This document shows positions 2 to 16,012 of a stretch of 20,000 bases of DNA, piece by piece. Source of the DNA: an uncultured virus (IMG/VR IMGVR_UViG_3300031992_000078) (lineage: Duplodnaviria > Heunggongvirae > Uroviricota > Caudoviricetes); IMG/VR virus record IMGVR_UViG_3300031992_000078, positions 56,387 through 76,386 of that record; one strand, 5' to 3'. Within the stretch, counting starts at the first letter, position 1. Each line of letters starts with the position of its first letter. Below the pieces are notes generated by a model. The model searched no databases, had not been told where the DNA came from, and saw only the letters and a program-made list of their open reading frames with translations. The translations under genes and the position numbers were made by a program.

Positions 2-790
2 ATCGAGCGGGAGAAGTCCGCGGCCGCTTCCGGGAATGCGTCAGGCTCTGCGAAGGCCGCGTCAAATGCTGCGGCCGGAGAAACGTCTGGTGCGAATGGT
101 TTGGCCGAGCCTCCTGTCGCGCCCGCAAGAACGGTTCGTTTCGCGACGGCCACAGACACTTCTGCAACCGGCGAAACGCCGGAGTCGAACGATATGGACA
201 ATGACTCTTCTAGCGTGGCCACAGTCGCGTCGGAAGCGTCCGACGAGACAAAAGGTCCTGTCGCTCGCAAGGGTACGTTCAGCGAAAGTGCGCATTCGCA
301 AGGGTTCATTGCTCCTCGCGGGTCTTTCTTCGATGCAGACCAAATGGAATGGGATTCCCGATCCGGAAAGTACGTCGCGAAGAGAGATGCGAAACCTTGG
401 CTGCCTCCCGCGGCCGGAAAGACAGTTCGCCATTTTCGCACGGACGATCCGCGCAAGAACGGCGGCAAGGAGATTGTCCATTTCACGATCGACCCGCGCC
501 CCGTCGCATTCGGGGAAAATCTCAAGAAGGGATTGATCGTCCCGGTCATTGGCGGCGCCATTGATCTTTTGAAGGACGAAAGCATCGGCGAGACGGCGGC
601 TACAACTGCTCAGGAGATGCTGCGACGGCTTGGCCATTGGCCAAAGGGGACGGCGCATGGAGGATGGCCGTCGTATCGAATGACGAAAGAGGAATATGAC
701 GAGTTTATGAAATTCGTTGAATCCGGGGAAATGCCTCCGCGCCCGAAAGCGGCGCAAGACTCGGGCGATGATTCTACCGCCGAGACGTGA
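2..790 (+). CDS. Hypothetical phage protein, 5'-partial (possibly virion/ejection protein)
   Basis: The frame of ORF 101..790 is open back to position 2 (IEREKSAAASGNASGS...), so the start lies outside the window. A/S/T-rich region followed by a globular-looking C-terminus; directly upstream of the giant gene. Confidence 0.7.
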   Translation: MEREKSAAASGNASGSAKAASNAAAGETSGANGLAEPPVAPARTVRFATATDTSATGETPESNDMDNDSSSVATVASEASDETKGPVARKGTFSESAHSQGFIAPRGSFFDADQMEWDSRSGKYVAKRDAKPWLPPAAGKTVRHFRTDDPRKNGGKEIVHFTIDPRPVAFGENLKKGLIVPVIGGAIDLLKDESIGETAATTAQEMLRRLGHWPKGTAHGGWPSYRMTKEEYDEFMKFVESGEMPPRPKAAQDSGDDSTAET

Positions 791-828
791 TCTTCGTTTC
801 AAACGACAACAATCAATTAGGATTTGCC

Positions 829-3800
829 ATGCCCATTCTTGACAATACGCTTCTTTCCGATGCGGAGCGCGAACGCGAGGCGCCTGCTCCTCATGTCTTC
901 GTGCCTCCGGCTCGACCCGAACCGCGAGCAACGGAACCGGATGTCGCAGAGGAACCGGACGAGACTGGCGCAACACCTTCGACTTCTTCGGAGTTGGAGG
1001 CCCAGACGAATCGCGAACCCACCGCTTCGACAGCGCAGGAGCCGGCCTCCGCCGAATCGGAGACCGCCACTTCCGCGCCGGTCGACGAATGGGCGGCGCG
1101 TTCACAACGTGCCGTGGAATTGCTTGAACGAATTGTCGAAGCACGGGGCGGAGACGCATTCGCACGGTTCGGCAAAGACAATGGACGTGGAATCGAAGGC
1201 CATTCGCTTGCCGAATGGTCGCGCATGTTTGAGAGTGGAAGTCTCGCCGCTCTTGCCGCAAATGGAGACGATGGCCGCCGTGCGTTCGACGAAGCGGAAG
1301 ACTTGATTCTTGATGCGGCCGGTAGAGTCGGCCTGCTTTCGTCGAACATCGAAGACATCGACAACGGACCGGTGTGGCTTCAAGATTTTGGCCTTGTAAA
1401 AGATCGTGAAGACTTGGAGGCGGGCCGGGCGTGGAACGCCGAGCGCCGCGAGGAACAGGTCGACATCGTTCGCAAAATCGACTTTCTCAAACGTTTTTCA
1501 AAGGGGGACGATCCGAGCGCCGGATTTTACGGCATGTCGCTCGATCAGCTTCGGTCTGCGGCTCTCGGGAAGGGAGTTCGCAACCGTGGCGATCGTGGCG
1601 CTCAAGAAGATTGGGATGATTTCGTCAAGCAGGTCAACACCCGCTACGAGCGCGAGCGCGAAGGACGCGGAATCGGGCAGAAGGCGGCGGACGCGTTCCG
1701 CGCCGGATTCGGCGACATCGGCGACATGGGCGAACGCCTGTACATCATCGCCGCCTATGGTGGAGACCGGTCGGCCAATTCCAAGTTCGCCGAACGGATG
1801 CGTGATGTGCAACGCGACGAGGAACGCCGTGGAATCTATCTCCCGGCGACGGTTTCCAGTCTGACCGACATTCGCAAGGACAATCTCGCCGGAGACATCG
1901 GTGCCTACATCATCGAGAACGTTTGCCGCCTCGCGCCGCAGACCGCCATCCAGATTGCGCTCGCCTATGGAACAGGCGGCGCCGCATCGGCCGCCATGTC
2001 CGGAGCCTCTATCGCCGCGAGGCAGGCCGTTGTCCGTGGTGCTGTCACCGCGGTCAACCTTGCGACGACCGTCGCTCTCGATGCGGCCGATACGGCAGGA
2101 CAGATGGTGCAGGAGAATGATGCGCGCGGTCGCCAGAACCTTCTCGATTGGGGAGAGTGGGCCGCCCTCGGCGGCGCATACGTTCTCGCTGACCTGCCGT
2201 CTCCGGTGTTTCGCATGGCGCAGAAAGCCGGTATCGGTCGTGCCGCCCGCACGGCAGGCGAGCAGGCCGTGCGCGACATGGCGTCGCGCTGGATTTACTC
2301 TCCCGGCTCATGGGGCAAGACGATGCTCAACGCCGCGAAGGAGACCGGCAAGAACTTTCTCGGCGAAGCCATCACGGAAGGTCCGATGCAGCAGGGCGCG
2401 TCCTACATCTGGAACGCGCTTGCGAACGGGTCTCCGGGATTCAAGAGCCAGGGAGAGGACGATTTCACTTACGGCTCGGCGTTTATGAACATGCTCGACC
2501 AGGCGGTCGCGGCGGGTCTTTCCGCCGGAGCCGCCGGGGTCGTCGGAAGCGCCGGAACCGCGAGGCGACAGGCAAAGACCTACAAGCATACGAGCGAGTG
2601 GGGCAAACGCCACGACGGAATCGAGCACGCGCTCCTCACGGAGATGCGCAACGCCGGAATCGACGTGTCTTTCACGTCCCTGACGCCCGCCGAGCAGGAA
2701 CTGCTCTACACGTATATCCGCAACCATACCGTGTCTCGCGACCTCGACGCCAAAGTCCGCCATCTGGAAAGGATGAGGAATCCCGGCTATCTTGCGGCGA
2801 ACGAGTTCGAGGCGGAACTTCTCAAGGACCAAAAGAAACTCGACAGGGCAATCGCGAATCTCAAGTTCGTCCAGACGGAGAACGCGAAAATCAATTCCGA
2901 CATCCGGAACTGGCTCAACGACAAGACGAACGGGGACCATGAGGCGGCCGCCGCGTGGTTGGAAGCGTATACGTCCTCGCGCCCGGCGCTCTCGATGGAC
3001 GACATCAAGGCGGACGGGGCTTCTACATTCCGGGCCGACGAGGCGAACGAGACTCTCGGGGCCGCCCTGGACGAAATCAAGAAGAAGAAGGCGTCCGACG
3101 AGTCCGCGAAGAAGATGGCGGAGTTCGGCTACGACGCAACGTATCCGGACATTCTCCCGTCCTACGGCGAAAAGGACGACGGGAAGTCGTCTCACGTCAT
3201 CCGGTTCGAAGAGAACCTGACGGACGAAGGAAAACTTTCCGTCCGCGTCTGGAACGCGGCCGACCCGCACAGGGCCCCGTCGAACTTCTGCACGGAGTTC
3301 GTCGTCGGCGAGAACGCGGAGAACGCCGAGGACGCGCGCCGCAAGGCGGGGGAGGCGGCGGACATGCTTGCGAGGTGGTTCGACGCCCTTCGCGAGTCCG
3401 ACGCGCCTGTCGTGAAGGCGGCGTCCGACCACCTCGCGCGCAACGGAAGGCAGGGGCAGACGGTCGTCCTCTATTCGTCGGACTTCGAAATGGCCCGAGA
3501 ATTGAAGAACGCCGGAGCGAGTCAGGCAAACATCGAGGCCGCCGTCGCCCGCGAGCAATCCGGACAGGACGGCATCACCGTCCCGTTGCAGAACGGACAG
3601 GCAATCATCCTTGTGAACCGCGAGCGGAATGCCACGGCCGCAGACCTCTTCGCGACGATCGATCACGAGACGTTCCACGCGGACTTCGTTGCGTTCGTCG
3701 CCGACGGCATGCAGGACAAGGCGCTTCTCAAGGCACTGGGCGTCGAACGGCCGGAAGCCCCGGAGGAAGGTGCCGACCCGGAGAAGGCCAAGGAATACGA

Positions 3801-6800
3801 GAAGGCGCTTGCCGCTTGGCGGAAGGACGCCAAGCGGCGGTTGACGGTCGCGTTTCTCGGGCTCGACGTTGACCCGAAGACCGGAAAGGACCGCGACTGG
3901 CGTTCGGTGACGGATGGTGAAATCGAAAACGCGGAAGAAGACCTTGCCTGCACGGCTTCGGTTGCCGCAGAAGGCATCGATGGGCGTCCGTTTTCCTACT
4001 TGACGCATCCGTTCCGGGCAGCGCGGATGGCCATCTTCAAGGCGCGCCATCCGGAACTGGATTCCCGGCTTGGCTCGTTCCTCGCCAAGAGGTTCGGCGG
4101 AGATGTTTCAGACGACGCGAAGGCGGAGTTCATTTCAAAGGTCCACGAGCGCGGCAATCTCTTCAAGACGGAAGTCCGCGACGAATCCGGCAACGTCGTC
4201 GGAAACAGGGACACGCCGAGCGTCGTGCGCGGTACGGACCGCGTTGCGCTTTCGCAGGACACGCTCGAACTGGTGAACCGCATCCGAAGCGCGGAGAATG
4301 ACCGCCGCCAGTTCCTCGAAGGAAGCGACGAGTTCGTCCCGCTGTTGGACGACCGCATCGAGAAGACCGTCGACGACACCTGGAACATGATGTCCGGCAA
4401 GCGCGTTCTTTCTCTCGACCCGGCAAAGCGGGATGCGATTTTGAAGGAACGTGCCGAGCGCGAGAAGAAGGCCACGGACGAACGTCGTACCAAGCAACTC
4501 GCCGAAGCCCAACAGCGCGAGGAGAATCTCAAGCAAATCATCCGCCAGGGACGTAGGCAGGGGGAGGCGAAGGCGCGCAACGAGCGCAACGAACTCCGCG
4601 AGCGGTTCGCCGGTCCGGTCCGTTCGGCCGCGGAGCAGCGTTCCGCCTCCGAGCAGGCGCGTCTCGCCGGGATCGGAGAGCGTGATGCCGCTCTCGGCGC
4701 CGCGCTCGAACAGGGGCGCAAGAACGCCGAAGTCGACGAGATGAACGAGAAGGCGAACCTTCTTGGTCAGGAGCAGGCGCGCGCCGCTCTGGAAGAGCGG
4801 GACGAGCTCCAGCGCCAGACGGAGGAAGAGGATGCCCGCCGCCGTGCCGCGCAGGAGGATGTGGACCGAGCGGCCATCGACGCCGAGGAGGCGCAGGAAC
4901 TCCGCGAAGGCGTGATGAACGCTCGCTCAGCCGAACTCGCCGAGGACACCCGGCGCATCAGGCGCGAGGCGGAAGAGCGGCAGGAACTCTCCGAGCGTGC
5001 GGGCGAGCAGGAGCTTGCCGAGCGCGAAGCGGTTGCTCGCGAGCAGATGATTGAAGAGGACGAGCGCGAGGAGGCCCGCCAGCGCGCCAGCGACGAAGAC
5101 GAAGCCCGCGCCGCGCTCGGGGACGAAGGCGTGAGGAGCCGCGGCGCAACGGCCGAAGAGGCGGCGGCGTTCGACAAGGGACCGACATACCACGGCAAGA
5201 CCGGTCGATACCTCTACAAGACGATGCGCGTCGTGAATGGTCATCTCGAATTCCCGATGGCGGGGACCGGAGTCGCCGTGCCGCCCGGCGAGTGGTTGAT
5301 TGCCGAGGACGAGAGCCGTATCGACCCGAAGACCGGGAAGCGTAGGACGCCGCTCGTGTTCGGTTCTTCCAAAATCAAGCGCGACGGAACGGTCAACCGC
5401 CAGAAGGGCGAGGCCGCCCCGTTCCCCGGATTCCACATGGGGACGAATCCGTACATGGCCCACATCGGGCTTGGCGGGAACGCGTCGCAGAAGCACTTCC
5501 AGAACGCGGACTACGTGTGGGTGGCCGTGGACGTGCCGATGGCCCGCACGGACGAATACGCGCAACGCGTCGCCACCGAAGGAAAGGGCGACCCGGACAA
5601 GGCGATGCGCGGCGTCATTCCGGAAGGCGGAATGTACTGGCGCAAGACGAACCCGAACATGAAGGGCAAGTGGGGCGTCGCCGGCGCGATGAAAATCGTC
5701 AAGGTCCTGTCGGACGCGGAGGTGGACGAAATCCTCGACCGCGAACTTCCGGACCGGGTTCGCATGGGACGCCAGGGTGGCGGTCGCTTCAATGCCAAGA
5801 CGATGCAGTTCGAGGGGCAGGACCTCAAGAACTGGAACTTGGAGGAAGAAGAGGCGAAGTTCAACCGTGCCGAAGCGATCAAGGCGGTCCGCAAGGCGCT
5901 TGCGAGCCAGTTCAAGGACGATGCCGGGAACGTCTACCCGACCCGGTATTCGCGCCATCTCGGCAGGGCCATCTCGAAGGAGACGGACGACACCATCGAC
6001 CTGCTTTCCATCGGCGTCCCGATGACGGCCGAGGAAATCGAGGCGAGGTGCCCGGAGTGGGCGGATGCGAAGCGCGCGGCGCAGAAGGTCGAGGCCGACA
6101 TCCGCGACCTGTTCGGCGTGTTTCCGACCTCCGAAATCCGCACGCCGGAGCGCGTCGATTTCAACGACGCCGTAGTCGAGGCCGGATCGTCCGAAACGAT
6201 TACGAAGGAAGCGGCCATTCCCGGAACTGACGTGAAGCTGACTTTGAACGAAGCCCTCAAACGGGGGGAGTCGTACAAGGTCAGGCAAGACAGGATCGCC
6301 GTCGTCGTCATCGGACTTCCGTCCGCCGGGAAGAGCAGCGTGTTCGTCAAGGATGTGAGCCGTGCGCTCCAAGCGCGCGTGCCAGACAACGACTATGTGA
6401 AGCCGGTCTACGCCGAGTTCGAGAACGGACTTGGCGGGAATGCCGTCCACCAGGAATCGGCGAACGTCAACTACCGGATATTGAAGGCCGCGCGCGACCA
6501 CGGGGACAACATCGTCTATCCGATTCTCGGGTACAAGCCGGAGAAGCTGCAGGAGGTCCTTGACTTCTTCAGGGAGGCACGATATTCTGCCCACCTGTTG
6601 TACAACGAACTCCCCGTTCCGAAGGCGGTTGCCCGCCTGCTGACGAGGTACTTGGACAACGGGCGGTATCTTCCGCTCGAACATACCATCTTCAAGGCCG
6701 CCGGAAAGGTCGGTCCAGCCTACGAGGAAAAGAAACATGACTTCGACAGCTACGCCAGATACTCGAACGACGTTCCAATCGGAGCGCGACCGAAGCGAAT

Positions 6801-9800
6801 CGAACAGTCCGACAGCTCCATCCTCGGAAGCATACCCGGTTATGGCGAAGTACGAGACGGACGACTGGGACGGAGACCCGGCGTGCCTGAACGATCCGGA
6901 GTACTGGAAGGAAGTGGAACGAATGTCCAATCGCCCGGAGGTTCTGGAAGCGCGTCGGAAGCGACTGGCGCGCGCTCACGCGGCGGCTCGGTAGTTCCGG
7001 CCGGACGCCAGAAGCAGGCGGGTGTCGCCTACCCGGACGCGTCCGCCGAAATCACGAAGATTCCCGACGGGCACTTCGCCACGGTCAGGAGCCGTGGCCG
7101 CGGAGAGTTCGAGGAGATTCTCAAGAAGAAGCGCCCGGACCTCGACGCGAAGGAGACGGTCAAGAACATCTTTGCGCTCAAGACCCCGAAGGAGCGCAAG
7201 ATCGCGCTGCATTGGATCGTGCGCGGCGGGCTCGCCTTGCCGGAGGACGCGTACAAGGTCGCCGACGCCTTGTCGGTGGCGGAGAAGGCGAAGGTTGACC
7301 CGTTCCGCTACGCGTCGCCGGACGAACTCCTGCTTGCGAACAAGGACTTCAAGCCGAGCGCTCGGCCCATAGACCCGGACACGGAGCAGGCGCTCACGGA
7401 CAAGCGCGACGAGGGAGACGGCATCACGTCCTACCTCGTCGAAGAGTCCAAGTTCGGACAGCTCACGATGCGCCGCATCATCGACACGCACTGGGGCGAG
7501 GACGCGAACCCGTGGTGTCTGCTGGCGAAGAAAAAGAAGTGGACGCACGTCGAGCTGATCAACGACTATAACGCCTATCAGGAGATGGAGCGTTGGTGGT
7601 CGGAGCTTCCTCGCGACGAGCGCGTCAGGATAGCCGGAGGCCGCGCGGACGAGGAAAGCGTCATGGACGCAGACCCGGCGTCGGAATACTATGTTGACAA
7701 CGTGGTTGACAATCCAGTTTCCTTGGACGACGCCTGGACCTACTGGCAGCACTACTCCGCCCTCCCGAAGCGTGTGGCGTTCAAGGACGGGAAACTACTC
7801 GCGTTCATGGCGACGGATGAATACGATCCGGAGTCGGATGACATTTTTGGCGGAGAGTTGATGGAAAGAACTCCGCCTGGTCGTTGGCGCGAGTGGGACG
7901 AATGGTTGCGCACAGAAGAGGGACGCGAGAATCAGGCGTCCTTCGCCGAGTGGATGCGAGTCAACCATCCGGATGAGTACGCAAAGGCGCTTGCTTACGA
8001 ACAATGGTGGGACCGGACGGATACATCGCATCCGAACCTCGACTGGGCGCGCGGAAGCGAAGTGCGGTCTCGTGGCGACGAAGGCGGCGAGGTGCAGGTC
8101 GGCCGCTTCGGCATGAAGCCGGGCTATGACGGTTCTTTGACCATCGAGACGGACCCGGACGGACCCGACAAGGAACTTCATGCAGAGATCAAGCGAATGG
8201 CGCGAGGCCTGCTTGACATCCTTCGCGACGATCCGCTTCCGTCGCAAGTCGATCCGAAGCTGCCGCCGCAATACGTCCTCATCGCGCCGCTCTACAAGAC
8301 GGACATCCAGAACGCCGAACAGGACGCCGCGATGCAGAAACTCGCCGGAACGGACTACGTGGGGCGGTACGAGGAAATCGCACGGCTCTGCGGGACCGAA
8401 TTCGACTATCAATCCGGTCGCGGAATCTTCCAAAACCAGCGCGAGATCAGCGGCCGCGTTGGACTTGGCCGCGTACCGACCGACGTTGCCAACCTCGTTG
8501 CGTCGCTCTTCGCCGATGTCGGCGCCGTCCAACAGCAGAACTCCGCGATCCGCTATACGCAGATTCCGAAAGAAGAGTTCGACGCAATCGAAAACCCGTG
8601 GGAGAAGGCCCGCGTCGTCACGCTCAAGTACGACGCGAGCAAGTTCAACCTCCAACAGATTTCGGACGAACTGCAAGATGTCGGGTTCGACGCGACGCCG
8701 TACAGGAACGGCGAAGTCCTCATTCTCAAGCCGATGGGCGAGTTCTACGACGATGACGGGAACTATTCGCCGGAGAAGGAAGAGAAATTCGAGATTGACT
8801 TTCGGAACGCATACGATATTCTAAAGGGCAAAGGGGCAATCCATGACTTCGAATTCGAATACGCAAGCGAAAACTACCTCGACGGAGAGGCTCGACGCGT
8901 TCTTTACCTCGCTAGGAGGGAAGAGGAACGACGACCCGCACTGGGCCGAGAAGATGTGGGAAGGCGGCAAGGCGGCGTCGGAGCACTACAAGAAGTACGG
9001 CCCGGAAGTTCCGTTCGGGAAGACTCCGCAGAAGTAAAGTCCCGCGGCGGCGAGATCACGCCGGAGGAAGATGCAGCCTACATGGACGCCGTGCAACGCG
9101 GCGACATGAAAGCCGCGCAGAAGATGGTCGAGGACGCGGCGAAGCGCGCGTTCCCGGACAGCGTTCTCATCCAGGACGGAAAGTTTCGCGTCATGTGGCA
9201 TCACACGAACGCGGACTTCAACTCATTCATGGCTTCCGTCAGGACTTCGAGCAAGCTCCGCGGAATCTTCTTCACGCCGCAGGAGTGGGGCTCAATGTCG
9301 AACCACGGCAACATTCACAAGCGGTACTACCTGAACGTCACGAATCCGAAACTCGCCTACGGATACGACGCCGACAAGGCGTACGTGGACGAACTCGCCG
9401 GGCTTCAGAAAGGCGTCGAAGACAGGGACGAAATCGCGAGAATCAACCGCGAGTTCAAGGATCGCACCGGCATCGACGCGTTCCTCGACCCGTTGAACGG
9501 TTGGTACAACGTCCTGACGCCGGAGCAAATCAAGTCCGCGGACCCCGCGACCTACGACGACGCGGGCAACGTCATTCCGCTCTCGCAGAGGTTCAATCCG
9601 GAGAGCAGCGACGTGCGCTCCCGCGGCGGCGACGGTCTCTTCGCCGACGAAATCTACGGACTTCGCACGCGCGATGTGGTGGAGCGCATCAAGGCGGAGA
9701 ACCCGTCCTACGTCTACCGGCCGGAGAAGCGCAAGATCGTCGAGATGGTCGAACGCGGCTTCGCGAAGGCGAAGGCGGACCCGAAGTTCTACCGGGACAC

Positions 9801-12800
9801 GGTGGCCGCGGCTCTCGCGGGCAAGTTCTCGCTCGACACGGACTCGCAGGCGTGCCTGATGCTCGACGAGTTCCTGCGCTCGGAGGCGGCTCGCAAGGCC
9901 CGCGCGAACGTCATCCGGCTCCGCTCGACCGGGGCGACGGCCGAGGAGGTCGCCGCCGCGCAGGCGGAGGCGGACGTACGCGCCGCAGCCCACGAGGCCG
10001 TGGCGGACGCCTACATGAAGTTCGGCAAGGCGCTCTCGGACGGAATGAACCAGCGCAAGGCGGCGCTCGACCCGGAGACAGGTTCGTTCGCCGGACTGGT
10101 GCAGGACTTCGAAGGCCGCGCCGGAGACGGCGCGCACACGACGCGCGACGAACTGGTCGCCATCCGCCGGTCCTGGGACGAAATCCGCACAATGCGCGAC
10201 GCGCTCCGCTCGATTCTCGACCAGGTGGCCGACGGCGGCGCCGATGCCGCCATCCGCGCGCTGATGGAACTGGAGGCCGAAGGCATCCGCAAGAGCAAGG
10301 GCGCCATCGGCCGCCGCCCGACGATCGGCGAGGAGGAGAAGGTCCCGTCCACGGACGACGAAATCGCCAAGTGGGCGAAGGACCGTCTCGTCGGGGCGAA
10401 GTACGACCCGAACGACGTGGAAACGAAACTGGCCCTCCGGTCCATCGTCCGCAAGATTGGACGGTTCCTCCTTCAGCGCGAGATGGACGCCGGGCGTCCG
10501 CTCGCCCGTCCGGAGGAGTTCCGCGGACAACTCGGAATGCTCTGCCGCCGCATCTTCTCCGAAGTGGACGAGACATTCAACGACTGGTCCGACCGCACGT
10601 GGGGCGACGTGTATTCGTCCTACGGCGTGTTCACGCCGGCGACGAAGGACGAACTCGCCCGGCGCCAGACGCAGATGACGGAACTACAGCGTCTCGTCTC
10701 GCAGTTGCAGGACGTGGAGGAGGAGCAGAAGCGCCCGCTCCGCACCGGCGAACAGCGCGTCGAGAGTTCCGAACTCGCGCAGGACCTGCGTGCGCGCATC
10801 CATTCCTTGATGAAGGAACTCGACCTGCCGATCCCGGAGGGCGAGGACGCGGCGAAGTACCTCAAGACGCCGCTCGACACCGTGAAGCGCGCGATGCAGC
10901 GGCGCATCGACCTGTTGCAACGAGCCATCGACGAGCACAAGGCCGTCGAGCGGAACCTCGACCCCGTACCGTACGACGACGAGGCGCTCGGGCTGAAGGA
11001 ACGACTGGAAGCCCTGCGGACGCAGTACGAACTCACGTTCCCGAAGGACGAGAAGGAACTCACTTACGAGGAACGCGTCGAACGTCTGCTCAAAGGTCTC
11101 AAGAACCGCGAGTCCAAACTGATGGCGGAACTGATGGACGCCCAACAGGGCGCCTTCCGCGGCCGCCGCCAGGACGCCAACGGGCTCGCCCGCCTCAATT
11201 CGAAGGTCGTGGAGGCCCGCGAGCGCGTAGCCGCCATCCGCGAGATGATCGGACAGCTCGAAGACGCGGCCGGCGAGAAGGCGTACTACTCGGCGGAGAG
11301 CAAGGCGATCCGCCGGCTCGTGAACGCCAAGCTCCGCCGCCTCTCCGAAGTCAACGGATGGATTCGCAATCCTACCAAGTGGGAGGAGCAGACGGCGAAG
11401 GAAACCCTCGACGTGACGGACCGCCCGCAGGTGAAGGCCGCGCAGGCCCAACTGGACGCCGCCATCGAGAAGTGGGAGCAGGTCCGCGACCAACTCGTCT
11501 GGGACCGCCAGAACGCGTTGAGCAAGGGCCTGAAGTACGCCTTCGGGCTTTTCCAGGTCGCGAAGCGCTGGAAGGCGGCGGCGGACCTTTCCGCCGTCGG
11601 AGTGCAGGGTGCCGTCGCGGGCTTCCTCTACGACCCGCGCATCGGCCTGGACGCCATCTGGAAGGCCGTATTCAAGCGCAAGGGCGAGGGCGGCTACGCG
11701 TTCAGCAAGGAGGCGTGCGACGCCATCATGCAGCACATGATGGACAGCCCGCGGTGGAAGGTCCTCGTCGAGAAGGCGGGCGTCCGCATTTCGAGCATCG
11801 ACTCCGTGGACTTCGCGAAGGCCGAGGAACTCCGTGCGGAGGGCTACGCGGCGAAGCGGATGGAATCCCTCGTGAACAAGGCGACGGGCGGCGTGTTCGG
11901 CGCCGTGACGAAGTTCGGGGACAGAACGTACACGATGCCGCTCGACATCATCCGGTGGTCGTTCGCGAACTCGCTCCTCGACCAACTCGCGCGCGTCCAC
12001 GGCGGCGTGGAGGCCATCCCGGAGGCGGACCTCAAGATGCTCGGGCGCATCGTGAACATCGAGTCCGGCGCGGGCGACCTGTTCCAACGTCTCGGCTTCG
12101 CCGGAATCAACCGCATCATCTGGGCTCCGGGCAAGCTGGCCGGGCAGTTGCAGTCGCTCGCTCTTCCGGTCATCCTCGCGGCGAACCTCGGCAAGTCCGG
12201 CGGCATTTCCGCGAAGGCGGCGATGCTCTTCTTCCGCAAGTGCTGGATGCGCCCGCTCGCCATGTACGGAATGTTCCTCCTGTTCTACCGGATGCTCGCG
12301 CACCTGCTCGGGGACGACGACCACCGCGACGAAATCGGGGAGTTCATCGACACGGACCCGCATTCGCCGTGGTTCGGCCGCGTGAACATCGGCGGCCGCC
12401 GCTTCTCGATTTCCGCCGGACTGGAATCGTACATCTCTCTCATCTACCGCACGAAGGACAAGGAACGGTCCGACATCTACGGTTCGACGCGCAAGGTGCC
12501 GACGGCTTCGGACCTCATCACGAACATGCTCTGGAACAAGGCGAGCCCGGACGTTGGCATCTTCCGCCAGGTCATCAACGGAAAGACCATCGACGGCCGC
12601 GAACTGGAAACGGCCGGAGACAAACTCAAGTTCATGGTGGGCGAAGTGTTCTGGCCTCTCACGATGCACGACATGTACCGCACGGCAACGTCCGACACGA
12701 GGTTCATGCCGAAGCTCGCCCTGCTCGGACTCTCCGCCATCGGCTACTCGTCCAACGACTTCGACTACGACTCCCGGAAACTCGACGTGTCCCGCTTCGA

Positions 12801-13170
12801 CCAGCTCACGAAGCTCACGAAGGAGGACCAGAAGGTATTCGCCAACAAGAAGGGCGAGTACTCCGCCGAGGAGGTCGAGGCCGCGCGGTCGCGCATGCAG
12901 GCGTACCGCAATGACGAGAAGTACGGCAAGTACGCGCGCGACTACGCGCGCGGGCTCGAACTGCGCGAGCGCCTGCGTGCCATCGACAACGAGATCAAGA
13001 AGGCCGAGAAGAAGTACGGCTCGAACAAGAAGGGTCTGGAGGCCGACGCCGAGTACCAGCAGTTGCTTGAGTACAAGGAGCGGACGCTCACGGCGTTCCA
13101 CCGGCTCTACACGCCGGCGTTCCAAGCGGACCTCCCGGCCTTCTACGACAGGTATCGTCCCGCCCGGTGA
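829..13170 (+). CDS. Giant polyvalent protein (~4113 aa), probable virion-packaged/ejected multidomain effector
   Basis: Uninterrupted ORF 787..13170. ATG at 829 has AGGA at 819-822 (GTG 787 is an alternative start). Gly/Ala-rich hydrophobic helices at ~1930-2560, HExxH zincin, coiled coil at ~4440-5130, cargo modules at 5146-9612, helical C-terminus with DPHSPWFGRVNIGG (12355) resembling C-termini of large phage virion proteins. Followed by a terminator. Confidence 0.9.
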   Translation: MPILDNTLLSDAEREREAPAPHVFVPPARPEPRATEPDVAEEPDETGATPSTSSELEAQTNREPTASTAQEPASAESETATSAPVDEWAARSQRAVELLERIVEARGGDAFARFGKDNGRGIEGHSLAEWSRMFESGSLAALAANGDDGRRAFDEAEDLILDAAGRVGLLSSNIEDIDNGPVWLQDFGLVKDREDLEAGRAWNAERREEQVDIVRKIDFLKRFSKGDDPSAGFYGMSLDQLRSAALGKGVRNRGDRGAQEDWDDFVKQVNTRYEREREGRGIGQKAADAFRAGFGDIGDMGERLYIIAAYGGDRSANSKFAERMRDVQRDEERRGIYLPATVSSLTDIRKDNLAGDIGAYIIENVCRLAPQTAIQIALAYGTGGAASAAMSGASIAARQAVVRGAVTAVNLATTVALDAADTAGQMVQENDARGRQNLLDWGEWAALGGAYVLADLPSPVFRMAQKAGIGRAARTAGEQAVRDMASRWIYSPGSWGKTMLNAAKETGKNFLGEAITEGPMQQGASYIWNALANGSPGFKSQGEDDFTYGSAFMNMLDQAVAAGLSAGAAGVVGSAGTARRQAKTYKHTSEWGKRHDGIEHALLTEMRNAGIDVSFTSLTPAEQELLYTYIRNHTVSRDLDAKVRHLERMRNPGYLAANEFEAELLKDQKKLDRAIANLKFVQTENAKINSDIRNWLNDKTNGDHEAAAAWLEAYTSSRPALSMDDIKADGASTFRADEANETLGAALDEIKKKKASDESAKKMAEFGYDATYPDILPSYGEKDDGKSSHVIRFEENLTDEGKLSVRVWNAADPHRAPSNFCTEFVVGENAENAEDARRKAGEAADMLARWFDALRESDAPVVKAASDHLARNGRQGQTVVLYSSDFEMARELKNAGASQANIEAAVAREQSGQDGITVPLQNGQAIILVNRERNATAADLFATIDHETFHADFVAFVADGMQDKALLKALGVERPEAPEEGADPEKAKEYEKALAAWRKDAKRRLTVAFLGLDVDPKTGKDRDWRSVTDGEIENAEEDLACTASVAAEGIDGRPFSYLTHPFRAARMAIFKARHPELDSRLGSFLAKRFGGDVSDDAKAEFISKVHERGNLFKTEVRDESGNVVGNRDTPSVVRGTDRVALSQDTLELVNRIRSAENDRRQFLEGSDEFVPLLDDRIEKTVDDTWNMMSGKRVLSLDPAKRDAILKERAEREKKATDERRTKQLAEAQQREENLKQIIRQGRRQGEAKARNERNELRERFAGPVRSAAEQRSASEQARLAGIGERDAALGAALEQGRKNAEVDEMNEKANLLGQEQARAALEERDELQRQTEEEDARRRAAQEDVDRAAIDAEEAQELREGVMNARSAELAEDTRRIRREAEERQELSERAGEQELAEREAVAREQMIEEDEREEARQRASDEDEARAALGDEGVRSRGATAEEAAAFDKGPTYHGKTGRYLYKTMRVVNGHLEFPMAGTGVAVPPGEWLIAEDESRIDPKTGKRRTPLVFGSSKIKRDGTVNRQKGEAAPFPGFHMGTNPYMAHIGLGGNASQKHFQNADYVWVAVDVPMARTDEYAQRVATEGKGDPDKAMRGVIPEGGMYWRKTNPNMKGKWGVAGAMKIVKVLSDAEVDEILDRELPDRVRMGRQGGGRFNAKTMQFEGQDLKNWNLEEEEAKFNRAEAIKAVRKALASQFKDDAGNVYPTRYSRHLGRAISKETDDTIDLLSIGVPMTAEEIEARCPEWADAKRAAQKVEADIRDLFGVFPTSEIRTPERVDFNDAVVEAGSSETITKEAAIPGTDVKLTLNEALKRGESYKVRQDRIAVVVIGLPSAGKSSVFVKDVSRALQARVPDNDYVKPVYAEFENGLGGNAVHQESANVNYRILKAARDHGDNIVYPILGYKPEKLQEVLDFFREARYSAHLLYNELPVPKAVARLLTRYLDNGRYLPLEHTIFKAAGKVGPAYEEKKHDFDSYARYSNDVPIGARPKRIEQSDSSILGSIPGYGEVRDGRLGRRPGVPERSGVLEGSGTNVQSPGGSGSASEATGARSRGGSVVPAGRQKQAGVAYPDASAEITKIPDGHFATVRSRGRGEFEEILKKKRPDLDAKETVKNIFALKTPKERKIALHWIVRGGLALPEDAYKVADALSVAEKAKVDPFRYASPDELLLANKDFKPSARPIDPDTEQALTDKRDEGDGITSYLVEESKFGQLTMRRIIDTHWGEDANPWCLLAKKKKWTHVELINDYNAYQEMERWWSELPRDERVRIAGGRADEESVMDADPASEYYVDNVVDNPVSLDDAWTYWQHYSALPKRVAFKDGKLLAFMATDEYDPESDDIFGGELMERTPPGRWREWDEWLRTEEGRENQASFAEWMRVNHPDEYAKALAYEQWWDRTDTSHPNLDWARGSEVRSRGDEGGEVQVGRFGMKPGYDGSLTIETDPDGPDKELHAEIKRMARGLLDILRDDPLPSQVDPKLPPQYVLIAPLYKTDIQNAEQDAAMQKLAGTDYVGRYEEIARLCGTEFDYQSGRGIFQNQREISGRVGLGRVPTDVANLVASLFADVGAVQQQNSAIRYTQIPKEEFDAIENPWEKARVVTLKYDASKFNLQQISDELQDVGFDATPYRNGEVLILKPMGEFYDDDGNYSPEKEEKFEIDFRNAYDILKGKGAIHDFEFEYASENYLDGEARRVLYLARREEERRPALGREDVGRRQGGVGALQEVRPGSSVREDSAEVKSRGGEITPEEDAAYMDAVQRGDMKAAQKMVEDAAKRAFPDSVLIQDGKFRVMWHHTNADFNSFMASVRTSSKLRGIFFTPQEWGSMSNHGNIHKRYYLNVTNPKLAYGYDADKAYVDELAGLQKGVEDRDEIARINREFKDRTGIDAFLDPLNGWYNVLTPEQIKSADPATYDDAGNVIPLSQRFNPESSDVRSRGGDGLFADEIYGLRTRDVVERIKAENPSYVYRPEKRKIVEMVERGFAKAKADPKFYRDTVAAALAGKFSLDTDSQACLMLDEFLRSEAARKARANVIRLRSTGATAEEVAAAQAEADVRAAAHEAVADAYMKFGKALSDGMNQRKAALDPETGSFAGLVQDFEGRAGDGAHTTRDELVAIRRSWDEIRTMRDALRSILDQVADGGADAAIRALMELEAEGIRKSKGAIGRRPTIGEEEKVPSTDDEIAKWAKDRLVGAKYDPNDVETKLALRSIVRKIGRFLLQREMDAGRPLARPEEFRGQLGMLCRRIFSEVDETFNDWSDRTWGDVYSSYGVFTPATKDELARRQTQMTELQRLVSQLQDVEEEQKRPLRTGEQRVESSELAQDLRARIHSLMKELDLPIPEGEDAAKYLKTPLDTVKRAMQRRIDLLQRAIDEHKAVERNLDPVPYDDEALGLKERLEALRTQYELTFPKDEKELTYEERVERLLKGLKNRESKLMAELMDAQQGAFRGRRQDANGLARLNSKVVEARERVAAIREMIGQLEDAAGEKAYYSAESKAIRRLVNAKLRRLSEVNGWIRNPTKWEEQTAKETLDVTDRPQVKAAQAQLDAAIEKWEQVRDQLVWDRQNALSKGLKYAFGLFQVAKRWKAAADLSAVGVQGAVAGFLYDPRIGLDAIWKAVFKRKGEGGYAFSKEACDAIMQHMMDSPRWKVLVEKAGVRISSIDSVDFAKAEELRAEGYAAKRMESLVNKATGGVFGAVTKFGDRTYTMPLDIIRWSFANSLLDQLARVHGGVEAIPEADLKMLGRIVNIESGAGDLFQRLGFAGINRIIWAPGKLAGQLQSLALPVILAANLGKSGGISAKAAMLFFRKCWMRPLAMYGMFLLFYRMLAHLLGDDDHRDEIGEFIDTDPHSPWFGRVNIGGRRFSISAGLESYISLIYRTKDKERSDIYGSTRKVPTASDLITNMLWNKASPDVGIFRQVINGKTIDGRELETAGDKLKFMVGEVFWPLTMHDMYRTATSDTRFMPKLALLGLSAIGYSSNDFDYDSRKLDVSRFDQLTKLTKEDQKVFANKKGEYSAEEVEAARSRMQAYRNDEKYGKYARDYARGLELRERLRAIDNEIKKAEKKYGSNKKGLEADAEYQQLLEYKERTLTAFHRLYTPAFQADLPAFYDRYRPAR
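3565..3945 (+). other. Zincin-like metallopeptidase domain within the giant protein
   Basis: HETFH at 3664-3678, preceded by beta-strand-like GITV...AIILVN; candidate distal Glu in AEEDLA near 3931. Metallopeptidase domains are typical of polyvalent proteins. Confidence 0.65.
5146..5760 (+). other. Uncharacterised globular cargo domain (YKTM...PGFH...YVWVAVDV...KTNPNM...MKIVKVLSD)
   Basis: Discrete aromatic/Gly-rich domain between the VRSRG (5131) and RYSR (5944) linkers. I recall this motif series from other large phage proteins; function unknown. Confidence 0.55.
6292..6805 (+). other. Zeta-toxin/PezT-like P-loop kinase domain within the giant protein
   Basis: Walker A GLPSAGKS at 6313-6336 after a hydrophobic strand, then DNDYVK, HQESA, NIVYP and a lid-like AVARLLTRYLDNGRYLP. 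This motif order matches the zeta toxin family. Confidence 0.8.
6560..6588 (+). promoter_or_regulatory. Internal sigma70-like promoter 1 (TTGACT-N17-TATTCT)
   Basis: TTGACT 6560-6565 and TATTCT 6583-6588, 17-nt spacer. Shares TTGACTT and ACGATATTCT with the site at 8795-8822; uses AT-rich codons (cga tat tct) in a GC-rich gene. Confidence 0.65.
6737..6994 (+). CDS. Nested +1-frame small gene 1 (85 aa, or 50 aa from ATG 6842); candidate antitoxin of the zeta-like domain
   Basis: GAGGA at 6724-6728 before ATG 6737. From 6842 the codons are strongly G/C-ending in this frame (gcg aag tac gag acg gac gac tgg...) and give a protein-like acidic then helical sequence, while the giant frame reads as a G/R/S linker. 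Confidence 0.7.
   Translation: MTSTATPDTRTTFQSERDRSESNSPTAPSSEAYPVMAKYETDDWDGDPACLNDPEYWKEVERMSNRPEVLEARRKRLARAHAAAR
7099..8040 (+). other. PcfJ-like (W-C motif) cargo domain within the giant protein
   Basis: NPWCL at 7507-7521, YWQHY, KRVAFKDGKL and WWDRTD at 8005-8022; bounded by VRSRG linkers at 7084 and 8062. Family assignment is tentative. Confidence 0.4.
8269..8560 (+). other. SAM-lyase (T3 SAMase)-like domain within the giant protein
   Basis: Motif order YVLIAP...GIF(8422)...REIS(8440)...ANLVASL...QQNSAIRY(8533) parallels T3 SAMase as I recall it (YVLVSA...GCY...EEKT...ALNVARL...EQDCVLVY). By-eye alignment only. Confidence 0.5.
8795..8822 (+). promoter_or_regulatory. Internal sigma70-like promoter 2 (TTGACT-N16-TATTCT)
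   Basis: TTGACT 8795-8800 and TATTCT 8817-8822, followed by AAGGGG 8831-8836 and ATG 8843. Rare codons (att cta) in the giant frame. Confidence 0.7.
8843..9037 (+). CDS. Nested +1-frame small gene 2 (64 aa); candidate inhibitor/antitoxin of the upstream module
   Basis: Own promoter and SD. The second half has phage-typical codons (aac gac gac ccg cac tgg gcc gag aag...). Its TAA falls inside the VKSRG linker; the giant frame here is an R/G/E-rich linker. Confidence 0.72.
   Translation: MTSNSNTQAKTTSTERLDAFFTSLGGKRNDDPHWAEKMWEGGKAASEHYKKYGPEVPFGKTPQK
9049..9612 (+). other. ADP-ribosyltransferase-like domain (ART-PolyVal type), possibly degenerate
   Basis: DAAYMDAV..GD...AQKMV leader, WHHT at 9196 (usually YHGT), GIFFT, YYLNVTNP, GIDA, and VLTPEQIKSADPATYDDAGNVIPLSQRFN end motif. 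Confidence 0.7.
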
Positions 13171-13505: not shown

Positions 13506-14774
13506 ATGATAGCAAGCAAAGCAGAAGTTGTCCGCCGCATCCGCGAGACACGCAAGACCATCGACGGGCGGGGCTACACCTACTTCGTCGCGCACGTCGG
13601 GTCGGACCCCATCACGGGGCGCCGCATCGACATCGTGCGCAACAGCCGCGCCGCCCTGATGGACGCCATCAACGACTACTACGCGGTCCTGCGCGCCGGC
13701 GTGATGCCAGGCGACGTGGACGCCGCGCTGAACCCGAAGGACATCGCTGAAGTGCGCGCCGCCCGCGAGAAACTCGGCGGCACGTCCATCGTCGAAGCGG
13801 CCGACATCATCGCCCGTGCGAAGGAAGTCCTCGCCGACGCCGGGCTCGCGGACATCACCATCCTCGACGCCGTGGCGTCGTTCGCGGGAACGAAGACCGG
13901 AGTGAAGCGCACCACACTCGCCGCCGCGTTCGACGCCTACCTCGCCACCTTCAACGCTGAACAGGAGACCTACCGCAAGGTCATCAAGACGCGCGTCGGC
14001 CGGATGGTCGTGGAACTCGGCGCCGAGCGGCTCGTATCCGACATCACGCCGACGGAGGCGATGGATTGGGTCGAGCGCTCGTTCGGCGGACTCTCGGAGA
14101 AGACATACAACAACTACCTCGGAGACTGCCGGACGTTCTTCAACTGGTGCGCGAAGCCCGTGCGCGCCTACTGCCGAGAGAACCCGCTTGCGAGCGCCGA
14201 GAAGCGCAAGGAGGCGAAGAAGCGTCCGGAGTTCATGCCGGTCGATGACGTGAAGAAGTGGTTCTCCATCCTGCTCGCATCCGCGTGCGACGAGAAGTCC
14301 AAGATGATTCTCTGGTGGAACGCGCTCGGGTTCTTCGCCGGCGCCCGCACCGCCGAGATTCACCGGCTCAAGTGGAAGGACGTTGACCTCGACAAGCGGA
14401 CGGTCCTATTCGCCGAGCCGAAGGGCTTCGCCCACGGCGTGCCGCCGAGGTTCGTGAAACTGAACGACGCGGCGATGGCTTGGCTCACGGCTGCGCCTCC
14501 GACGCGACACGGCCCGGACGACCTCGTGTTCGCGAGCGTGGACGAGACTCGTGCGGTGTCCAACTACCTTGCCGTGCTCGCCAAGAAGAACGGCATCATT
14601 CTCCCGAAGAACGCCGCGCGTCACACCTTCATCACGATGCACGCGACGGCCTTCCACGACGCGGCGCTCACGGAGTCCATCGTCGGGACGAGTTCCACGA
14701 TGCGGCGGAGCCACTACCAAGGACTCGTCCGCGAGGAAGAAGCCAAGCGGTACTTCGAGGAGATCAGGCCCTAG
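13506..14774 (+). CDS. int: Tyrosine recombinase / phage integrase
   Basis: 422 aa; AAGGAG SD at 13494-13499; core-binding region (KTYNNYLGDCRTFFNWC), GARTAEIHRLKWKDVD (catalytic R), KNAARHTF and RSHY (catalytic Y). Confidence 0.93.
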   Translation: MIASKAEVVRRIRETRKTIDGRGYTYFVAHVGSDPITGRRIDIVRNSRAALMDAINDYYAVLRAGVMPGDVDAALNPKDIAEVRAAREKLGGTSIVEAADIIARAKEVLADAGLADITILDAVASFAGTKTGVKRTTLAAAFDAYLATFNAEQETYRKVIKTRVGRMVVELGAERLVSDITPTEAMDWVERSFGGLSEKTYNNYLGDCRTFFNWCAKPVRAYCRENPLASAEKRKEAKKRPEFMPVDDVKKWFSILLASACDEKSKMILWWNALGFFAGARTAEIHRLKWKDVDLDKRTVLFAEPKGFAHGVPPRFVKLNDAAMAWLTAAPPTRHGPDDLVFASVDETRAVSNYLAVLAKKNGIILPKNAARHTFITMHATAFHDAALTESIVGTSSTMRRSHYQGLVREEEAKRYFEEIRP

Positions 14775-15315: not shown

Positions 15316-15662
15316 TTCGTCGCCTCCTCGTGTTCTTCGGCCGCCTGCTTCATCCCCTGTACGTCGAGGTCCTTGACACCGATTCGTCCGCTCTTCATCA
15401 GCATGTAGCCCCTTGTGTGCCCGGATGGGAGCGGGTCCATCGCCTCGATGGGCACCGGCCTTTTGATGAGACGGGAGAAGGCGTCCTCGGTCAGCCACCC
15501 GTTCTTGCGCCATGAGGAGAACACGGTGTAGGCCATTTCGAAAGTCTCGATCCGGAATGGACAAAGCACCGTGGCCGGTCGTGCCATGTCGATGAAGAAC
15601 TCGTCCGCATCCTGATTGACCGTCACGCCGATGGCGTCTATGCTTTGTCTGGTAATCGTCAT
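15312..15662 (-). CDS. Hypothetical protein (116 aa)
   Basis: Strong SD; 4-nt start/stop overlaps with both neighbours. Confidence 0.8.
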   Translation of the reverse strand: MTITRQSIDAIGVTVNQDADEFFIDMARPATVLCPFRIETFEMAYTVFSSWRKNGWLTEDAFSRLIKRPVPIEAMDPLPSGHTRGYMLMKSGRIGVKDLDVQGMKQAAEEHEEATK

Positions 15663-16012
15663 TTCGTTGCCTCCTCGAAAACTTCAACCCTCTTGCCGTC
15701 CCATCCGTCGTATGGAAGGAAGCGCTTGATGGTCACGAACGGCTGCGTCGGTTCGGTTTCGGTTGTCACGAAACGGAACCATTCGCTTCCGTCGTACTCG
15801 TCGCGAATCAGAATCCATCCGTCTCCGACGATCTTGAGATTTGGATCGACCTCTTGCGAGCCGAAGCCTTCGTCGTAGTCGAATGCGCTTGCCGCGACCA
15901 TGTAGTTTTCCTTCGTGATCGGACCGGCCGATGTAATGACGAGTTTCACGTCGGACCAACTTTTCCCGTTGTCTCTCAGAGCAACGACTGTTTCTGTCCA
16001 GAGATTAGTCAC
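15659..16012 (-). CDS. Conserved-type hypothetical phage protein (117 aa)
   Basis: YDEGFGSQE...VGDGW...R.EYDGSEWF motif recalled from other phage proteins; GTG start with AGGAGG. Confidence 0.85.
   Translation of the reverse strand: MTNLWTETVVALRDNGKSWSDVKLVITSAGPITKENYMVAASAFDYDEGFGSQEVDPNLKIVGDGWILIRDEYDGSEWFRFVTTETEPTQPFVTIKRFLPYDGWDGKRVEVFEEATK

Follow-up and report, generated by a model that had tools for sequence, protein, structure and literature searches.

The window analysed here, a stretch of 20,000 nucleotides (positions 56,387 to 76,386) of the uncultured caudovirus record IMGVR_UViG_3300031992_000078, contains as its longest open reading frame (ORF) a gene for a giant protein of 4127 amino acids (aa), translated in one uninterrupted frame from 787 to 13170 on the plus strand. 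The protein belongs to the polyvalent proteins as defined by Iyer et al. 2017 and combines in one chain a Zeta-toxin-like kinase, an ART-PolyVal-like ADP-ribosyltransferase (ART) module, and at least three modules without a known family. Short peptides of the form [VA][RK]SRG, here called junction tags, recur six times at the joints of these modules and might be the places where the chain is cut. Retrieval with aa 1400-3000 as the query yielded 77 giant relatives (2399-5967 aa), most of which contain Pfam families of polyvalent proteins (ART-PolyVal, LPD domains, ddrB-ParB, MuF_C, and PBECR); relatives are present in metagenome-assembled genomes of Kiritimatiellae and Lentisphaerae. As in the polyvalent proteins described before, a giant multi-effector chain is encoded beside virion genes and unites ART-PolyVal and zeta-kinase modules with an HExxH region (PMC5512222).

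All parts of the protein are encoded on the plus strand. The N-terminal non-cargo part (787..5130, aa 1-1448) shows 26-31% identity to P0004, P0005, P0079, and P0082, whose cargo differs. It includes a zincin-like region (3394..4116, aa ~870-1110) with the motif HETFH (3664-3678, aa 960-964), and it closes with a stretch that is by composition rich in Glu, Arg, and Ala (aa ~1150-1448). Tag 1, VRSRG (5131..5145, aa 1449), marks the end of this part and the start of the cargo. Cargo module 1a (5146..5940) matches phrog_30118 in PHROGs (aa ~1475-1652, E 5e-23) and is followed by the variant TRYSR (5941..5955, aa 1719) and by module 1b (5956..6969), a Zeta-toxin-like P-loop kinase (PF06414, aa ~1823-1969, 24.3 bits against a cut-off of 22.3). 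Tag 2, ARSRG (6970..6984, aa 2062), and tag 3, VRSRG (7084..7098, aa 2100), enclose a mini-element of 33 residues containing YPD (6985..7083, aa 2067-2099), which is conserved in at least 19 relatives, where the local tag follows it and in several also precedes it. Module 3 (7099..8061), which more relatives share than any other module (21, at 40-74% identity), ends at tag 4, VRSRG (8062..8076, aa 2426). Module 4 (8077..9033) has no Pfam match and no usable match in the ESM Atlas; tag 5, VKSRG (9034..9048, aa 2750), separates it from module 5 (9049..9612), the ART-PolyVal-like ADP-ribosyltransferase (PF18760, aa ~2797-2919). Taken alone, module 5 scores 30.7 bits against this family, just under the gathering cut-off of 31.2, and the homologous modules of relatives score 42.9-110.2 bits, above it. 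The cargo ends with tag 6, VRSRG (9613..9627, aa 2943), where the C-terminal non-cargo part starts (9628..13170, aa 2948-4127; 31-42% identity to P0004, P0005, P0011, P0079, P0080, and P0082). Translation confirms the six pentapeptides and TRYSR at the positions given by the initial annotation. Its further statement, that the motif delimits every cargo module, stands in outline and fails at two places: module 1a and the kinase are split by TRYSR, not by the pentapeptide, and tags 2 and 3 delimit the mini-element.

The number of tags exceeds by far what the composition of the protein would produce, as ~0.04 copies of [VA][RK]SRG are expected and six are found. Among 2000 shuffled sequences, 1929 hold no copy, 71 hold one, and none holds two or more. 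The tripeptide SRG also occurs six times (1.5 expected from composition), each time within the pentapeptide. All six tags are confined to the central 36% of the protein, with none in aa 1-1448 or 2948-4127. The codons vary among the six copies, as the initial annotation had pointed out in favor of selection on the peptide, and no DNA repeat coincides with the tags (the 20 largest repeat families listed are unrelated short matches), so the conserved object is the peptide. In L008, a relative 88% identical, all six tags are kept with five synonymous codon changes, and residues are replaced at position 1 only (Ala to Val and Val to Ile). These patterns support the notion that the tags are under selection at the peptide level.

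The tags also coincide with the limits of homology. In BLASTP comparisons of the giant protein with 75 relatives (the identical P0002 and the 87% identical P0003 being excluded), 36% of the 215 alignment endpoints in aa 1300-3100 fall within 10 aa of the six sites; with randomly placed sites, 7% of endpoints are nearby on average and 26% at most in 2000 trials. Thirteen alignments stop at aa 2944, at tag 6, and starts cluster at aa 2065-2074 and 2757, those near tag 5 spanning aa 2742-2762. Alignments with the kinase modules of relatives begin at aa 1717-1737, directly after TRYSR; of these 26 endpoints, 20 fall on aa 1730. An AlphaFold2 (AF2) model of aa 2040-2470, which covers tags 2-4 (22-row alignment, mean predicted local distance difference test score, pLDDT, 69.7), places tag 2 (model residues 23-27) in coil with pLDDT below 50 and tag 4 (residues 387-391) within a stretch of pLDDT below 50 (residues 384-417). 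Tag 3 lies at the border between a disordered stretch (residues 59-61, pLDDT below 50) and the first helix of module 3, which begins at the Arg of the tag; part of the mini-element reaches pLDDT 64-72 with a short helix. None of the modelled tags 2-4 is found within a folded core, the situation that the initial annotation had named as speaking against protease sites. Stand-alone relatives of module 3 that start with Met number nine (439-657 aa), and their alignments run from aa ~2098-2104 to ~2345-2459. No junction-like motif is present in seven of them, and the other two have one unrelated match to the regular expression each. The P0144 family (277-287 aa, on contigs of up to 221 kb) stops just before the place of the tag. 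As stand-alone relatives of module 3 are without the tag, the latter belongs, on the sequence evidence, to the fusion context and not to the fold of module 3. It is supported by these data that the tags mark module limits, in or beside disordered linkers. The proposal that they are also boundaries of module exchange holds at the protein level, where alignment ends fall on them, and finds no support at the DNA level from a repeat or recombination site.

Structure searches with module 3 returned nothing at E<=0.001 against the PDB with Foldseek and no row above Z 5.6 in the wide VIA search, the rows covering mostly a small helical sub-part. Certain bacterial proteins with the annotation YwqK-family antitoxin (e.g., from Porphyromonas somerae, among P0099-P0137) contain parts of the module in fusion with MORN repeats. 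In one relative, at L010:9993-9995, an in-frame stop lies inside module 3 where other sequences have Ser; homology resumes after it, and the position is not at a joint. The stop could reflect a sequencing error, a pseudogene, or recoding.

A wider form of the motif is found across the relatives. The pattern [IVLMT]-R-[YFH]-[SRKM] occurs 172 times in the 77 giant proteins against 76 occurrences expected, typically as Asp-Ile-Arg-Tyr/Phe-Ser after the tail of a module; Stx-phage-type proteins of 2.8 kaa have one copy each, and the relatives from phi24B hold a single LRYS site. TRYSR, regarded as a variant tag from the outset, fits the hydrophobic-R-[YF]-S form, and VRSRG appears to be a local, derived dialect of this widespread junction motif. 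Phage P1 was considered as an experimental anchor and rejected: DdrB, reported as processed, and DarA are without hydrophobic-R-[YFH]-[SRKM], and DarB has one copy.

The dialect used by a protein follows its scaffold, i.e., the non-cargo parts, and not its cargo. All six tags are retained in P0003 (87% identity over the cargo) and in L008. In P0079, P0080, and P0082, the zincin region is 39-41% and the C-terminal part 39-42% identical to those of the window protein, and in P0079 and P0082 aa 159-1121 align at 31% identity. The cargo of these three is mostly different (RadC, MuF_C, or LPD3, with an ART module in two), yet each contains two to three copies of VRSRG, which occupy the beginning, the interior, and the end of the cargo; P0080 and P0082 each have one of these starting 7 residues past the end of the ART-PolyVal domain. 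Other relatives share module 3 at 50-57% identity, yet have a different recurrent peptide at the same joints (e.g., P0004, P0007, and P0010). P0004 and P0005 use VRARN, with nine and six RARN strings, including one inside the zincin region. Further dialects are IRFK (P0007), RFKR (P0013), RFSI (P0012, P0016, and P0017), RHS[LV] (P0020 and P0025), [RK]FAS (P0014), AYFS (P0015), FDTP (P0010), and RFRR (P0024, with only 31% identity in module 3). Where homologous modules end in a conserved tail, the dialect of the respective protein comes next, and in all six relatives with a full-length ART-PolyVal match, representing four dialects, the tag starts 6-7 residues past the domain end. VRSRG is kept where the zincin region is at least 37% identical to that of the window protein and differs below ~31%. 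This comparison of module order and linker motif among relatives, suggested in the initial annotation, reveals variable order and content of modules and a lineage-specific dialect. It supports the view that tag identity tracks the lineage of the scaffold rather than the cargo, scaffold lineage being inseparable from phage lineage in the compared sequences. Uniformity of the tags within a protein, together with their joint change from one lineage to another, is expected if a single trans-acting reader (e.g., a protease) recognizes them. The position of the tags, the selection on them, their linker context, and their concerted change are established by these observations.

P0003 is a mosaic, 87% identical over the cargo and 37% over the zincin region; judging from these values, its N-terminal part and its cargo have different histories. 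The dialect of P0008 and P0009 is R[YF]SI, yet module 3 in both has the ending Gly-Ala-Arg-Ser-Arg-Asp, which is close to the ARSRG of the window protein and may have been left by a recent transfer of the module. In P0069, the dialect is SRRP, occurring five times (shuffle P=0.000) as Ile-Arg-Ala-Ser-Arg-Arg-Pro after the tails of ART modules.

The zincin-like region shows sequence hallmarks of zincins and a middling fold match. His960, Glu961, and His964 are invariant in an alignment of 12 sequences, and Glu1050/Glu1051 are nearly so; this Glu-Glu pair, ~90 residues downstream of HExxH, lies in a later helix of the AF2 model and is a candidate for the third metal ligand. The model (pLDDT 74.1, predicted template-modelling score 0.66) places HExxH in a long helix (residues 182-206) after a small sheet. 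Foldseek with this model returned nothing at E<=0.001 against the PDB, and phmmer found among PDB sequences only designed miniproteins (E>=0.12). The top rows of the VIA search are mostly zincin proteases at middling Z of 4.3-5.7 (e.g., 7bb8 with Z 5.4, a root-mean-square deviation of 3.0, and 110 aligned residues), and comprise M30, M32, and M3 peptidases, MATCAP, minigluzincins, PprI, SprT/Wss1, and a lethal-factor-type protease. Nearly all relatives hold HExxH at aa ~650-1260 of the N-terminal part. Complex prediction of the zincin region with Zn and a 75-residue linker containing tags 2 and 3 gave a score of 0.01, which speaks neither for nor against binding. The first beta-strand of the HExxH-holding domain, right after a disordered stretch, is VIRFEEN (3193-3213, aa 803-809), with YPD ~17 residues upstream of it, as in the mini-element. 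P0081 (1461 aa, on a contig of 10.9 kb) consists of the N-terminal part only and may be a natural split or be cut by the contig end.

The window represents the final 20 kb of a contig of 76,386 bases, on which a terminal direct repeat of 127 bases indicates a complete genome of ~76.3 kb. A simple script based on GC content at third codon positions called 73 ORFs; apart from the giant ORF, 72 were compared with PHROGs and 27 of those with Pfam, and most have no family assignment. Recognized genes include those for a primase, a helicase, a single-stranded DNA-binding protein, and an exonuclease; the large terminase, an SU10-type portal, the capsid protein, and tail-fibre-like genes lie upstream of the giant ORF, and a family-8 glycosyltransferase gene (L003:12090-12968) is found among the tail-fibre-like genes. 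An integrase gene (13506-14774) lies just downstream of the giant ORF, followed by an excisionase-like ORF (15659-16012, minus strand), and the phage is temperate. No tRNA genes were found within the window. The gene directly upstream, which starts before the window and extends over 1-790, encodes 632 aa without a family; its stop and the beginning of the giant ORF share positions 787-790. It was rejected as a general partner of the giant protein, being kept only in L008. Within these PHROGs and Pfam searches, no other protease or prohead protease family was recognized in the genome; a match to a PHROG with the label 'peptidase' extended over 75 residues in one tail-fibre-like ORF. A tblastn search against 50,697 phage records gave a single weak match, to module 1a, and in a hydropathy scan of the giant protein no 19-residue window reached 1.5. 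A relative from phi24B (2811 aa) is reported as a virion protein (preprint 10.64898/2026.04.10.717836), and by analogy the giant protein would be packaged in the virion and delivered together with the DNA.

The reading preferred here is that the tags are signals recognized and cut by a single endopeptidase, and it has in our view about an even chance of being right. The protein consists of two non-cargo end parts, N-terminal and C-terminal, with exchangeable effector modules strung between them, and the six pentapeptides and probably also TRYSR would serve as junction tags in flexible linkers. One endopeptidase would cut at the tags and release the modules from both end parts in the manner of a polyprotein. 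Which enzyme reads the tags would depend on the lineage of the phage or scaffold and not on the cargo. That cleavage occurs, at which bond, when (in the head or after ejection), and by which protease are all matters of inference. The HETFH region of the protein itself would be the first candidate for the cutter, a tentative assignment that we hold to be less probable than its opposite. Processing of polyvalent proteins by embedded zincin-like metallopeptidases was predicted by Iyer et al. 2017 (PMC5512222).

Several observations weigh against this reading. No cleavage product is on record for the giant protein or any relative; Iyer et al. 2017 (PMC5512222) note delivery without cutting for the virion RNA polymerase of N4, ArdC, and TraC1, and the phi24B preprint, in its available text, mentions no fragments of the 2811-aa virion protein (10.64898/2026.04.10.717836). 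The linker evidence from AF2 covers three of the six tags (2-4), and tag 3 abuts the start of a helix. The canonical motif alternates like a beta-strand, and such strings can be structural, since in the AF2 model the look-alike VIRFE (aa 803-807) forms the opening strand of a folded domain. For the zincin region, the fold match does not exceed Z 5.7, a middling value, and no peptidase family of Pfam is recognized in it. No HExxH is present in P0010, P0024, P0026, P0051, P0067, P0037, and P0023, most of which keep recurrent junction motifs; the embedded zincin is therefore not the universal reader. Exact recurrence of a 4-mer is significant at P<=0.01 in the shuffle test in only seven of the 58 non-redundant relatives (at P<=0.05 in 16, of which two owe it to MORN-repeat words and not to junction tags), so a sharp code is not general.

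Retention of junction motifs by relatives without any HExxH would be explained if the tags were cut by a different protease, either an unrecognized phage protein or one of the host, and HETFH acted elsewhere (on a host target or the cell wall) or were inactive. The inseparability of scaffold and phage lineage and the many ORFs without a family leave room for such an enzyme, and the authors of the phi24B study propose a cell-wall role for the metallopeptidase of that protein (10.64898/2026.04.10.717836). Nevertheless, no protease family is detected elsewhere in the complete genome with PHROGs and Pfam, and HExxH recurs at a similar place in nearly all relatives; we regard a separate cutter as rather improbable. 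The positional and co-evolutionary evidence suits any trans-acting reader, so the tags might also be docking motifs that are never cut, acting in loading of the procapsid, in binding of packaged DNA through the basic Arg-Ser-Arg, or in ordered unfolding and threading through the tail. Delivery of some polyvalent proteins in uncut form (PMC5512222, in the passages drawn on) and the basic character of the tag are in line with docking; other dialects, however, are not basic (FDTP, AYFS, and [RK]FAS), a loading signal need not recur at each joint, and stand-alone relatives of the modules are without the tag. We regard docking as rather improbable, on a par with a separate cutter.

It is very unlikely that the tags are mainly seams for module-swapping recombination, without a role in the finished protein. 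Alignment ends do fall on the tags, and the order and content of modules vary among relatives, as seams would predict; but the codons differ and no DNA repeat is found at the tags, hence there is no nucleotide homology for recombination. Moreover, the tag does not travel with the module. As the tags of transferred modules take the dialect of the recipient lineage, selection on the peptide is required. Repetition by chance or low complexity, without function, can be rejected with near certainty: 74 of 2000 shuffles of this Ala/Glu/Arg-rich protein do hold some 4-mer at least five times, such words being rich in Ala and Glu, but no shuffle contains even two of the pentapeptides, and the tags are retained in relatives down to 31-42% identity. 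Release of the modules by one endopeptidase could be extended to a general junction code, in which an ancestral hydrophobic-R-[YF]-S stood at every polyvalent-protein joint, drifted into dialects (VRSRG, VRARN, IRFK, RFRR, RHS[VL], [RK]FAS, and FDTP), and co-evolved with a protease of the N-terminal part; we consider this generalization doubtful, though worth stating.

Among known systems, the closest in outline are MARTX toxins, in which delivery ends flank central exchangeable effectors that an embedded protease releases; the likeness is one of outline, cleavage being presumed here (PMC6315884). The MARTX cutter is a cysteine protease domain activated by inositol hexakisphosphate (PMC6315884). 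No Pfam family of cysteine protease domains or RTX repeats matches anywhere in the window protein at E<=0.01, and the window protein is not a member of the MARTX group, the analogy being one of design only. Delivery differs as well, being here presumably from a phage head into a bacterium. The MARTX protease prefers cutting after Leu in linkers. Packaged and ejected proteins that are trimmed at a short repeated motif, as would be the case here, are represented by the internal proteins of T4 and the head proteins of phiKZ-like SPN3US (PMC10052503, PMC5694885). In the complete genome studied here, most of whose ORFs have no family, no prohead protease gene was recognized by PHROGs on 72 ORFs or by Pfam on 27. 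Motifs of prohead proteases are Leu-x-Glu and Ala-x-Glu, unlike the tag.

An analogy between polyvalent proteins and the polyproteins of RNA viruses is drawn by Iyer et al. (PMC5512222). As in such polyproteins, each virus has its own uniform kind of site, which would co-evolve with a viral protease. The two differ in that no domains are shared and the present case concerns a DNA phage, with cleavage presumed. Pre-toxin motifs of polymorphic toxins (e.g., VENN in CdiA) are likewise short peptides at the border between constant and exchangeable regions, with one border per protein and a motif that is constant across lineages. In contrast, the window protein has several borders and a lineage-specific motif. 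The passages of Iyer et al. 2017 drawn on here name no cleavage site or inter-domain motif, and none of the literature searched, including these passages, describes junction cleavage sites in polyvalent proteins; the present analysis offers concrete candidate sites. Relative to that literature, two things are new: lineage-specific junction tags that can be named concretely, and their association with the scaffold.

The tags provide seven exact candidate places for cleavage in one protein, and by following the scaffold rather than the cargo they point to a single reader. If they are cleavage sites, they would define the mature anti-host effectors injected by the phage, including the kinase and the ADP-ribosyltransferase, and would supply a rule for parsing similar proteins from metagenomes. 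Should the general code be true, the sequences of giant phage proteins in their thousands could tell which mature effectors they yield, and a newly acquired module would become 'naturalised' as its flanks convert to the dialect of the host protein.

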